This document shows, piece by piece, positions 5,115 through 22,102 of a DNA stretch of 64,000 bases (its first letter is position 1; each line of letters begins with the position of its first letter). The stretch is from Terracidiphilus sp. GTDB lineage: Bacteria; Acidobacteriota; Terriglobia; Terriglobales; Acidobacteriaceae. The position numbers and the translations under genes are program-made. The notes beneath the pieces are model-generated. The model saw only the letters and a list, made by a program, of their open reading frames with translations, did not search any database and was not told the origin of the DNA. Where the stretch lies: positions 32 through 64,031 of the forward strand of contig JBEKDB010000013.1 in the NCBI GenBank assembly GCA_050014575.1, written 5' to 3'.

Positions 5115-6470
5115 TCAGGCCGGTTGCGCCAGCAGGATGATGAGTTCCATCTGCGGGTTGAGGAGGTCGGCCGGAGCGTAGACGGCGAAGTTGCGGGCGC
5201 GCTGCACCGACTCCCAGACCGGGCCGGCCTGCTCGATGGAGAAGTACTTGTGGCGCAGCTTGACCGGGATCGACCGGGGCGGCGTGGCCACGTACGTCAG
5301 GCGCAATCCGGGCAGGGCGTTGCGGATGAGGGTTTCGAGCTGGGTCGCGGAGCAGGCTTTGAGCAGTTGCGGGGTCCGCTCGATCAGTTCGGCGTCGCGG
5401 ATATCGGCCGAGATGGCCAGGTAGAAGCGGGAATTCTCGAAGTAAGCGTCCTTGTCGATCGAGGTTGCGTAGATGGTATCCCGGACCATCTTGAGGGGGA
5501 GCGCGACAAAGTTGCTGGGAACCACGGTCTCCAGCATGACCCGGATGAGGCGGTCCAGTTCGCCGAAGCAGGAGCCAAGCTGCTCGTGGTCGTAGGCGGG
5601 CAGGTCGCGGGGGGCGATCTTGCTGGAGAAAGAGGTCAAGGCTCCGGCCAGGTCGGAGAGCTCATTGAAGAGCATCTCGGGCTGAATATTGCTCGATTCC
5701 AGGAAGTGGCGAAGCACGGGGAGATGGCTGTTGATCGTGTAGAGCAGCCAGAAATTGGCCACGTCGGAGGCCGTGAAGTCGGCCAGCGACTGATTCTTCT
5801 GGCGGCGGCCGCCGGCCAACTGGCTGCCGCGGGCCACCAGCAGCTCGACCATATTGCTGAGGATGCGTTTGAGGGCGGGGTGGGCGTGAATATCGATGAG
5901 GGGAGGAATGTAGGCGGGGTCGATCTGGTAGGCGCCCGTCTCCGAGCGGAGGATGCGCAAGAAGGCAAGCACGACGGAGCCCTCGCGGTTCTCGCCTTCG
6001 GCCAGAATCTGGAGGTTCTTGCGCGCCACCTGGACGGGCTTTTCGCCGCTGCCAGTGTTCTCGTCGCGGACCATGAGCAGTTGCGCCAGGAAGCGGGTAC
6101 TGACTCGCCCGCGATCCACCGAGACGTTCATGCCCCCTTGCAGGTACTCGGGTACGGCCAGGTAAAAGGTGCAGCTTTGGCGCCCGTCCAGGAAGCATTC
6201 GTCGAGCAACCGGGCCGGCGGCGGATACTCCGAGGCGGGAATGTCCAGCGGTAGCGCATCGGGGAAGATTCCCGAGGCGCGGGTAATCGCCAGCCGGCCC
6301 TCAGAAAGGGCCTTGGTATCGATCTGAATCTCGCGAAAGCCCCAGGACCGGGCGTTGAGGGAGTCCAGGTAGAACCTGGCGCTGTCTTCAACGAAGCGCT
6401 CCTGCGCCTGCAGGTGCTGGGGTGAGAGAAAGGTGCCTTTGGACCAGATGACGGGTTGAAGCTGTCGCAT
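5115..6470 (-). CDS. tssK: T6SS baseplate subunit TssK (VasE/ImpJ)
   Basis: MRQLQPVIWSKGTFLSPQHLQAQERF N-terminus, GIFPDALPLDIP, YDHEQLGSCF; 451 aa, divergent from tssB. Confidence 0.93.
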   Translation of the reverse strand: MRQLQPVIWSKGTFLSPQHLQAQERFVEDSARFYLDSLNARSWGFREIQIDTKALSEGRLAITRASGIFPDALPLDIPASEYPPPARLLDECFLDGRQSCTFYLAVPEYLQGGMNVSVDRGRVSTRFLAQLLMVRDENTGSGEKPVQVARKNLQILAEGENREGSVVLAFLRILRSETGAYQIDPAYIPPLIDIHAHPALKRILSNMVELLVARGSQLAGGRRQKNQSLADFTASDVANFWLLYTINSHLPVLRHFLESSNIQPEMLFNELSDLAGALTSFSSKIAPRDLPAYDHEQLGSCFGELDRLIRVMLETVVPSNFVALPLKMVRDTIYATSIDKDAYFENSRFYLAISADIRDAELIERTPQLLKACSATQLETLIRNALPGLRLTYVATPPRSIPVKLRHKYFSIEQAGPVWESVQRARNFAVYAPADLLNPQMELIILLAQPA

Positions 6471-6590
6471 GGGCTGAGCAACCTCGGCTGAGATGTGATG
6501 TTAACGGTTGAGTGGAGCGGATGTCCAAACCGGCGGCGGCGGACCGTTCAGGAAACCCCTGAACAAGTCCTTGTTGTGGAGTCGACATTC

Positions 6591-6656
6591 CCTCAGGGGC
6601 TAAAGCCCGCATTCATTTTGGCGGGCTGATGTACGGGCTGAAGCCCGTACCCTTCA
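6591..6656. repeat. REP-like element (GGGGCTAAAGCCC / GTACGGGCTGAAGCCCGTAC family)
   Basis: Two short hairpins; a related copy lies at 30108-30174. Confidence 0.7.
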
Positions 6657-6881
6657 AGACATCGACTTCCTCGGAGGCTCCTTTGGGACGGCGGAGAATC
6701 CACGATCATCGTCGCACAGCTCGGAGGAGGAACGCGAAAATATTTTTCCGCAACATCTCATCCTAGAGCGGGTTGGGGTAATATGAGGCTGTCAAAGATT
6801 CCTCTGGACAGAAGTCCCGGTCTTGTGGTTTCTTTGGATTCATCGGTTGTTACCCGCATCTCCCCGAATTTCAGGAGCAAT

Positions 6882-7409
6882 ATGGCCAGAGAGAGTACAC
6901 AGCAGAAGCTGAGTCGCGTCCGGGCGCCCCGGGTGCAGATTACTTACGACGTAGAGGTCGGAAACGCCATCGAGATGAAGGAGCTGCCCTTCGTGATGGG
7001 GGTGTTAGGCGATCTGACCGGACAGCCGGAGAAGCCGCTTGCGGCTTTGAAGGATCGCAAATTCGTTGAGATCAACCCGGACAACTTCGATAGCGTGCTG
7101 AAAGGCATGTCTCCCCATCTGAAGTTCTCCGTAGAGAACAAGCTGAGTTCCGACCCCAGGGCGGGTCAGGTAGCGGTCGATCTGAACTTTGAAAAGTTCG
7201 AGGATTTTTCGCCCGCCAATGTGGCCGCGCAGGTGGGGCCCATCAAAGAACTGCTGGACTTGCGGACCAGGCTATCCAACCTGCGGGGCAGCCTGCAGGG
7301 CAACGACCAGCTCGATCAGGCGCTCTTCGACGCGGTTTCAAAGACGGATGAACTCAATAAGCTGCGCACCGAGATGGGTGGCGAGCCAAAGGGGGACAAA
7401 CATGAGTAG
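6882..7409 (+). CDS. tssB: T6SS contractile sheath small subunit TssB (VipA)
   Basis: MARESTQQKLSRVRAPRVQITYDVE...ELPFVMGVLGDLTG...FEDFSPANVA; RBS AGGAG before ATG 6882. Confidence 0.96.
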   Translation: MARESTQQKLSRVRAPRVQITYDVEVGNAIEMKELPFVMGVLGDLTGQPEKPLAALKDRKFVEINPDNFDSVLKGMSPHLKFSVENKLSSDPRAGQVAVDLNFEKFEDFSPANVAAQVGPIKELLDLRTRLSNLRGSLQGNDQLDQALFDAVSKTDELNKLRTEMGGEPKGDKHE

Positions 7410-21081: not shown

Positions 21082-21202
21082 TCCAGCCGCTCCCGACCAG
21101 GTGGAAAGTGGCACCAAGGGCGGCGCCATGAACACCGGGCCGTTTAGGCTTTGGCCGGCGAACGTCGGAGCTAACATATCTCCGAGGAACGATGGGTGAC
21201 GC

Positions 21203-21676
21203 TTGACGCAATCATTGGCACAACCCGGCCTAGTCTCCCAATTCCCCTCGGTTGGAAGATGGAATGTTACCGCAATGCCGGGAGGCTGGCTCTATATTGC
21301 CGGCTTTGGGATACGCCAGATGACCATGGCTGCGGGGACGATAGCCGCAAGCGTGGGCGTGGGACAGGATACGCTTGCTTCAGAGGACGGCCTAGCGGAG
21401 TATATCGAGAAGCAGAAGAAGCTTATCGGGAACTACTTAAAGGAAGCGAAGTTTGCCGGGCCCCAGGCGATCGCTTTCGGGGGCGCGGATGAGGCTCAAC
21501 TGCTCTTCGTTCGCCATAGTGCGAACTCGGCCGGAAGCATGTTGCACGCCCAGACCTACGCGCGACTGGGAAACTGGGTGGGCATCGTTACGCTGACGAC
21601 ATTGGAGGCGCAACTCAAGGCGGTGCGGCCGGACTACGAGGCATTTTTGAAAGGCTTGCACATAAGTCCGCAATGA
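21203..21676 (+). CDS. DUF1795/DcrB-like (PsbP-fold) protein; possible T6SS adaptor or immunity protein
   Basis: 157 aa pattern ...LAEYIEKQKKLI...HAQTYARLGNWVGIVTLTT...YEAFLKGL resembles DUF1795/Eag proteins; located between the effector candidate and PAAR. Confidence 0.5.
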   Translation: MTQSLAQPGLVSQFPSVGRWNVTAMPGGWLYIAGFGIRQMTMAAGTIAASVGVGQDTLASEDGLAEYIEKQKKLIGNYLKEAKFAGPQAIAFGGADEAQLLFVRHSANSAGSMLHAQTYARLGNWVGIVTLTTLEAQLKAVRPDYEAFLKGLHISPQ

Positions 21677-21733
21677 GCAAGCGGGACGGCAGAGAGGAAT
21701 TGGCAGGATGAAACCGGGGATGGAGAGCGACTG

Positions 21734-22102
21734 ATGCCGCCAGCAGCTAGGATCACCGATATGCACGTCTGCCCCATGGTGACTGGCGTTGTGCCGCATG
21801 TGGGCGGGCCGATCCTGCCCCCCGGCGCGCCCACGGTGCTCATCGACTTTCTGCCCGCGGCCACCGTGACCACCATGGCCACCTGCGTGGGACCGCCGGA
21901 TATGATCGTCATGGGCTCGGTGGGGGTGATGATCAACTTTCTTCCCGCCGCCCGGCTGCTGGATCCTACCGTGCACGGCGGCATGATTATGATGGGCTCT
22001 CCGACCTGCATCATAGGCGAGGTCGGTACTCCGTCGCCCGGCGCGGGCGGTTTGGGCGGGGTGGCTGGCGGCCTGGCCGTCAGCGGCGCGACGCCGCCGT
22101 AA
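21734..22102 (+). CDS. PAAR-repeat spike-tip protein with short Gly-rich tail
   Basis: MPPAARITDMHVCP...PHVGGPI...LPAARLLDPTVHGGMI: PAAR motifs with His/Cys metal ligands. Confidence 0.93.
   Translation: MPPAARITDMHVCPMVTGVVPHVGGPILPPGAPTVLIDFLPAATVTTMATCVGPPDMIVMGSVGVMINFLPAARLLDPTVHGGMIMMGSPTCIIGEVGTPSPGAGGLGGVAGGLAVSGATPP

Follow-up and report, generated by a model that had tools for sequence, protein, structure and literature searches.

An apparently complete type VI secretion system divided between two loci in a Terracidiphilus genome, and the paired TssK layout of the Acidobacteriaceae

The stretch of Terracidiphilus sp. DNA analyzed here, referred to below as the window, comprises 64 kb and corresponds to positions 32-64031 of contig C13 (JBEKDB010000013.1) in an assembly of 4.13 Mb and 125 contigs with an estimated completeness of 99.4% (GCA_050014575.1). 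Between window positions 5115 and 22102 it harbors a cluster of type VI secretion system (T6SS) genes, all of which are identified by Pfam profiles as intact, with every reading frame open. The genes of this cluster, together with the gene and the two repetitive extragenic palindromic (REP)-like elements that border tssK1, are the following (window coordinates; Pfam matches in parentheses).

4424-4900, plus strand: nrdR, convergent with tssK1 (Zn_ribbon_NrdR, ATP-cone)
4944-5032, no strand: REP-like repeat of family A, with a palindromic core, downstream of tssK1 at the rearrangement junction discussed below
5115-6470, minus strand: tssK1, baseplate connector of 451 aa (T6SS_VasE, E 9e-138)
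6583-6658, no strand: REP-like repeat of family B, in the divergent tssK1-tssB spacer, with 34 copies on 22 contigs
6783-7409, plus strand: tssB, small sheath subunit (T6SS_VipA, E 3e-56)
about 7405-8895, plus strand, start approximate: tssC, large sheath subunit (VipB, E 3e-134, and VipB_2)
8970-9446, plus strand: hcp, tube (T6SS_HCP, E 9e-34)
9453-10181, plus strand: tagJ, ImpE-type accessory protein (ImpE, E 2e-31)
10099-11544, plus strand: tssA (ImpA_N, T6SS_VasJ)
11565-12044, plus strand: tssE, gp25-like baseplate wedge protein (GPW_gp25)
12048-13895, plus strand: tssF (T6SS_TssF, E 8e-214)
13859-14929, plus strand: tssG (T6SS_TssG, E 5e-101)
14907-17657, plus strand: clpV, sheath-recycling AAA+ ATPase (AAA_2, AAA_lid_9, ClpB_D2-small, Clp_N)
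17617-19764, plus strand: vgrG, spike (Phage_GPD, Phage_base_V, Gp5_trimer_C)
19942-21081, plus strand: candidate effector, a fusion of an M91-like metallopeptidase and LysM (Peptidase_M91, E 9.5e-11; LysM)
21203-21676, plus strand: DcrB-like gene upstream of the PAAR gene (DcrB, E 7e-5, under the gathering score)
21734-22102, plus strand: PAAR spike tip, the last T6SS gene in the window (PAAR_motif, E 3.5e-18)

The start of tssC is approximate because alignments with relatives begin only at about residue 70-90 of the open reading frame that starts at 7189, and clpV is at most 40% identical to the other ClpB-like genes of the genome. The tssK1 gene is monocistronic, being divergent from tssB over a spacer of 312 nt and convergent with nrdR, and the repeats around it are genuine dispersed elements of two distinct families, of which family A has 69 copies of at least 40 nt on 41 contigs. 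No tssJ, tssL or tssM gene is found in the 64-kb window. A preliminary description of this DNA had listed the genes from tssK to PAAR as intact, had portrayed tssK as divergent and monocistronic with REP-like repeats on both sides, and had noted the lack of tssJ, tssL and tssM; all of these observations hold, with the repeat coordinates right to about 25 nt.

The genes for the membrane complex lie on other contigs. A profile search of the whole genome for TssL, TssM and TssJ, as the preliminary description had proposed, succeeded for TssL and TssM, with one match each, and failed for TssJ. The sole DotU/TssL match is located at C113:3846-4448 (E 9e-42) and the sole IcmF/TssM match at C122:3042-3971 (E 3e-51). 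When C122 (5111 bp) is reverse-complemented, its end matches that of contig C113 (5031 bp) exactly over 122 nt, an overlap that joins the two in frame. Given that an exact 122-nt end overlap is common to 15 contig pairs of the assembly, this length can be identified as the assembler's usual graph overlap. As an aside, the assembly could be scaffolded further from its 122-nt end overlaps alone.

The joined contig has a length of 10,020 bp and contains, in this order, the 5' part of mscL, a proline-rich gene, tssK2, tssL, tssM, a REP element, a PP2C phosphatase gene and a tetratricopeptide repeat (TPR)-like gene, with tssK2-tssL-tssM on the strand opposite to that of mscL and the proline-rich gene. 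The tssK2 gene, on C113, codes for a protein of 448 aa (Pfam TssK, E 6e-122); TssL has 252 aa, with a DotU domain and a hydrophobic C-terminal segment; and TssM is encoded by an intact frame of 1145 aa that runs across the join and matches the Pfam families IcmF-related, IcmF-related_N and IcmF_helical. The genome hence has two tssK copies, the products of which are 34.6% identical, and the remaining tss genes are single-copy. The proline-rich gene (C113:371-2218, minus strand) and its orthologues, which are present in loci L003, L005, L007, L018-L035 and L097-L099, code for proteins of 604-616 aa with a C-terminal membrane anchor, about seven G-x-F-T-x-L-L motifs and no Pfam match. This gene always adjoins tssK2 on the opposite strand, and remains with tssK2-tssL-tssM in those genomes where the locus is split.

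Comparison with related genomes provides the context for this arrangement. TssK is encoded in 12 of 24 congeners, invariably by two tssK genes that share contig and strand and are separated by 81 nt to 3.5 kb. Among 80 Acidobacteriaceae loci, a set in which two cultured species are represented, Terracidiphilus (now Occallatibacter) gabretensis S55 (locus L041) and Granulicella paludicola DSM 22464 (locus L060), about 55 present both blocks in a shared layout, and several of the remaining ones are cut off by a contig end. In this layout clpV, tssG, tssF, tssE, tssA, tagJ, hcp, tssC and tssB are read in one direction and tssK1 is divergent from tssB; past tssK1 there is a spacer of 1.5-5 kb, occupied in Terracidiphilus and some related genomes by the proline-rich gene on the opposite strand, followed by tssK2-tssL-tssM and then by the PP2C gene. 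Hence, a lone, divergent tssK1 is the norm of the family and not an oddity of the present window. A second architecture occurs in loci L004, L008, L009 and L010 of some Terracidiphilus genomes (congeners G023, G022, G005 and G008), where tssF-tssG-clpV-vgrG is followed by tandem tssK paralogues 81 nt apart, and no tssL or tssM was found in the adjacent sequence examined.

Separation of the two blocks is seen in other genomes as well. In seven genomes, the 3-10 kb examined beside tssK1 do not contain the second block, and each of these genomes carries exactly one tssM elsewhere; in the three of them in which its neighborhood was checked, tssM forms part of a block consisting of the proline-rich gene, tssK2, tssL, tssM and the PP2C gene. 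On the closed 3.6-Mb chromosome OZ255708.1 this block lies about 405 kb from tssK1, and on a 3.47-Mb contig of another relative about 450 kb from it. In locus L099 (G044:C15:106001-124000), a PP2C-tssM-tssL-tssK2-proline-rich block stands directly past the DcrB-like and PAAR genes and may thus have been relocated to the opposite end of the cluster. Since such splits occur in other genomes, a closed chromosome included, separation at the junction between the proline-rich gene and tssK1 is both recurrent and natural.

In the present genome, the two sides of the ancestral junction can be followed. On C13, tssK1 is followed by a REP element and nrdR in place of the proline-rich gene, and on the joined contig the proline-rich gene is followed by mscL and not by tssK1; judged by gene order, C13 and the joined contig are best described as the complementary products of one break. 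In relatives, the orthologues of nrdR and of the thiamine-pyrophosphate enzyme gene that precedes it in the window do not share a contig with the T6SS locus. The genes after nrdR in G024 are an IDH-like gene, asd and ask, the last two of which are on C71 in the present genome. Our conclusion is that the locus was divided by a genuine rearrangement, exactly between tssK1 and the proline-rich gene, and that a REP element now stands at the junction. The ends of C13 and of the joined contig fall in tuf, mscL and the TPR gene, and neither C13 nor the outer ends of C113 and C122 show an end overlap of at least 25 nt with any other contig. The synonymous divergence (dS) of tssK2, tssL and tssM from the three closest relatives is 0.55-0.70, and that of most window genes from the same relatives is 0.53-0.82, with higher values for hcp and lower ones for tagJ. 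The similarity of these figures indicates that the window and the off-window parts of the system are equally diverged. Furthermore, the REP element of the joined contig belongs to a family that occurs 15 times in the assembly, distributed over 13 contigs including this one.

Against five congeners, the ratio of nonsynonymous to synonymous divergence (dN/dS) lies within 0.05-0.3 for every one of the twelve genes tested, once out-of-register stretches with dN above 1 (tssA in two loci, tssB in one) are disregarded, and tssK1 is the most constrained of them (0.05-0.08). These ratios indicate that the tss genes are under purifying selection and not decaying, which bears out the earlier argument that intact genes speak against simple decay. 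Taking together the gene content, the contig join, the synteny of relatives, the purifying selection and the equal divergence, we consider it very probable that a complete, ordinary T6SS-i is encoded at two loci in this Terracidiphilus genome, and that the membrane genes have not been lost. The preliminary description had offered several alternatives, and the one according to which the membrane genes had moved elsewhere turns out to be right, with tssK2-tssL-tssM on C113 and C122. It had also named a tssL-tssM operon at another genomic site as the finding that would reduce the locus to an ordinary split T6SS, and such an operon exists. Loss of the membrane genes at the REP elements finds no support, since tssL and tssM are on those contigs, and neither does a ClpV-recycled T6SS-i machine with a different anchor or independent of a membrane complex, since the genome has both TssL and TssM; a ClpV-recycled T6SS-i that fires without a membrane complex is thus untrue here. 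The synteny comparison it had called for deprives the lone tssK of its peculiarity, as the family layout has a second tssK heading tssL-tssM.

Other explanations of the same arrangement have to be weighed. C13 could be an assembler chimera, formed at the REP element downstream of tssK1, in which case the locus would be truly contiguous as in relatives. A member of REP family A, with its many copies in the genome, does sit exactly at the junction, and nrdR lies within 10 kb of tssK1 in none of the 80 related loci. However, the opposite side of the ancestral junction is disrupted too, with the proline-rich gene leading into mscL and no REP copy at that point; individual REP copies are short, at about 90 nt, and only 75-98% alike; and other genomes show a split at this junction within closed or long contigs. 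We regard a chimera as very unlikely, and even if it were real the membrane genes would still be present in the genome. It is also conceivable that C113 and C122 were mis-binned from another Terracidiphilus, so that the organism would lack TssL and TssM and its T6SS would be without a membrane complex or differently anchored. Both contigs are indeed short (5.0 and 5.1 kb), their G+C content is 0.64-0.65 versus 0.62, and contigs of this kind are invisible to marker-gene estimates of contamination. Nevertheless, the genes inside and outside the window are equally distant in dS from the same relatives, a REP family of the present genome is represented on the joined contig, and a contaminant with the usual layout would have tssK1 past the proline-rich gene, where mscL is found instead. 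Moreover, tssM is present in every TssK1-bearing genome examined, and ClpV, TssA and TssK belong to the membrane-anchored T6SS-i. Mis-binning is accordingly the least credible of the explanations considered here, with hardly any weight left to it.

Several points do weigh against a complete, ordinary T6SS-i at two loci. The assembly is a fragmented bin of metagenome type, and the contigs that carry the membrane genes are just 5 kb each, so that co-binning is conceivable. No match to the TssJ profiles PF12790 or TIGR03352 was obtained at E ≤0.1 in the whole genome, and a lipobox scan for a substitute TssJ returned nothing in window positions 1-30000 or in the joined contig; TssJ is small, divergent and not universal in T6SS-i. 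TssM, for its part, has no match to Pfam IcmF_C at E ≤0.01. IcmF_C is the TssJ-binding domain in canonical systems, and a TssM without a match to it fits with an undetectable TssJ. Anchoring to the outer membrane is left unexplained without TssJ and IcmF_C. Finally, the PP2C gene downstream of tssM (on C122; about 8130-9035 of the joined contig) presents a deletion of 43 nt with respect to three congeners, as a result of which the codons of the DGMGG motif are gone and the frame is shifted. It is likely to be a pseudogene, and its state hints at some erosion of regulation. A PP2C gene beside tssM recalls the PpkA/PppA phosphorylation pathway of the H1-T6SS, a paradigm under which a T6SS deprived of its phosphatase would stay on. 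The broken PP2C gene, together with a locus that has been rearranged with respect to close relatives, could alternatively mean that the T6SS has been decaying since the split and is no longer functional. Such decay is set against the intactness of all 14 structural genes, both tssK included, the natural split layouts of complete genomes and the low dN/dS values, which are lineage averages that a very recent loss of function would escape; we deem it somewhat less likely than an assembler chimera, and thus highly improbable.

If the complete T6SS-i is assembled as its gene content would lead us to infer, TssL-TssM would sit in the inner membrane and the baseplate, made up of TssE, TssF, TssG, TssK1 and TssK2, would dock on it. 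TssA would then help the Hcp tube and the TssB/TssC sheath to polymerize, VgrG-PAAR would deliver cargo such as the M91-LysM protein, and ClpV would recycle the sheath, so that the mode of action would match that of other T6SS-i.

What sets this system apart is its second TssK. Full-length alignments, covering shoulder, neck and head, are obtained for TssK1 and TssK2 alike with the TssK of enteroaggregative Escherichia coli (EAEC; PDB 5M30). In a tree of 62 sequences, K1 and K2 are sister clades, with support of 99 and 98 in the Shimodaira-Hasegawa-like approximate likelihood ratio test (SH-aLRT), inside a joint clade (98), and the two TssK of the present genome fall one in each. The single TssKs of nine other Acidobacteriota families branch outside the joint clade, and two sequences of a tenth family, from a genome with several TssK, fall inside it. 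The K1 and K2 subtrees mirror each other, also for the tandem-tssK architecture and for one genome of another family. Across 300 evenly sampled genomes of the phylum, near-adjacent tssK pairs are restricted to the Acidobacteriaceae and one other family; in a further family of the same order, one complete tssK is accompanied by part of another, located at a contig end. Identity within each TssK class is 61-70%, and between K1 and K2 it is 32-36%, spread evenly over shoulder, neck and head, with no domain-specific divergence. No description of a duplicated tssK or of an Acidobacteriaceae T6SS was found in the open-access literature. The unusual remainder is the paired-TssK, TssJ-less T6SS-i layout of the Acidobacteriaceae, which is undescribed in searchable papers.

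The EAEC baseplate offers a possible rationale for such a pair. In its TssK6-TssF2-TssG1 wedge, loops 1 and 2 of TssG provide two non-equivalent sites for TssK trimers (Park et al. 2018, PMC6300606; PDB 6N38). By analogy, TssK1 and TssK2 may each fill one TssG site. In EAEC, one gene fills both TssK sites; here, two paralogues of about 34% identity are always retained together. We can thus tentatively postulate an obligate two-paralogue baseplate connector, in which trimers of TssK1 and TssK2 would occupy separate TssG sites in each wedge and TssK2, the gene of which would be co-transcribed with tssL-tssM, would dock on the TssJ-less membrane complex; we hold this proposal to be possible rather than probable. 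If true, it would explain why the tssK pair has been retained since before the families of the class diverged, even in split loci.

The significance of these results lies mostly beyond the window, which is one split example of the paired-TssK variant. Their remaining value is modest: a common soil family, the Acidobacteriaceae, possesses a variant of the T6SS-i in which two TssK paralogues of ancient divergence are inherited together, TssJ is not recognizable and a tail-anchored proline-rich protein is conserved. Such a variant could help to tell apart what each of the two TssK positions does in the baseplate wedge. In methodological terms, core genes that seem to be missing from a 64-kb window of a fragmented assembly call for a genome-wide search before their absence is taken as biology.

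The rest of the window deserves a brief account. The region 3' of vgrG (19942-22102) has the appearance of a cargo module composed of the M91-LysM gene, the DcrB-like gene and a small PAAR gene, with no obvious immunity gene. A DcrB-like homologue accompanies PAAR in G044 too, and the Pfam DcrB family includes the DUF1795/Eag-type T6SS chaperones. Beyond the PAAR gene, positions 22.1-36 kb hold housekeeping genes for a BadF-type ATPase, an amidohydrolase, a Ser/Thr kinase, an ammonium transporter, a glycosyltransferase and Sua5. The Ser/Thr protein kinase gene (24597-25610, plus strand) lies amid these genes, 2.5 kb downstream of PAAR. On the other flank, upstream of nrdR, the following non-T6SS genes are found.

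2-406, minus strand: tuf (EF-Tu), 5' part, truncated by the contig start (GTP_EFTU, E 1.6e-50)
2294-4024, minus strand: thiamine-pyrophosphate enzyme, acetolactate-synthase-like, a housekeeping gene (TPP_enzyme_N, _M, _C)

The first 437 nt of C13 (C13:1-437), inside tuf, are 96% identical to C44:58905-59341, where a second tuf copy resides, and this duplication probably caused the assembly break at the start of C13. The gap past the tuf fragment contains, at 1028-1127, a 26-nt inverted repeat built of reiterated CAGTTGTCAGT-like units, with arms that are 92% complementary and separated by 48 nt.

Regarding known systems, the contractile sheath, tube, baseplate and spike are held in common with the T6SS-iv, the extracellular contractile injection systems (eCIS) and the cytoplasmic contractile injection systems (CIS). 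To our knowledge, these machines do without TssL, TssM, TssK, TssA and ClpV-type recycling. The present genome has all five, so that comparison with them is inapplicable, and the defining trait of a system devoid of a membrane complex, namely a genome with neither TssL nor TssM, is not observed: both are present, intact and under purifying selection. A closer parallel is found in Acinetobacter, where a working T6SS-i dispenses with the TssJ lipoprotein and its membrane complex relies on lineage-specific accessory proteins (PMC12949010). Given that precedent, the absence of TssJ represents no new kind of system. The present genome likewise yields no TssJ, and its tssK2-tssL-tssM block is accompanied by a tail-anchored proline-rich protein specific to the lineage. 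The two cases differ in that the accessory genes of the Acidobacteriaceae are unrelated by Pfam to those of Acinetobacter, a comparison that did not include a search for TslA, TsmK or TagX homologues, and in that two TssK have not been reported there. With the canonical T6SS-i, exemplified by EAEC Sci-1 and the H1-T6SS of P. aeruginosa and encoded at multiple loci in some genomes, the present system shares TssA, TssB, TssC, TssE, TssF, TssG, TssK, TssL, TssM, Hcp, VgrG, PAAR, ClpV and TagJ. The marks of a T6SS-i are accordingly all in place (sheath and tube, baseplate, spike, TssA and ClpV, TssL and TssM), save for TssJ. It departs from the canonical systems in having no detectable TssJ, two diverged TssK and a tssK2-tssL-tssM block away from the main cluster, and it shows the hallmark of the paired-TssK arrangement, with one tssK standing alone and divergent from tssB and the other heading tssL-tssM.

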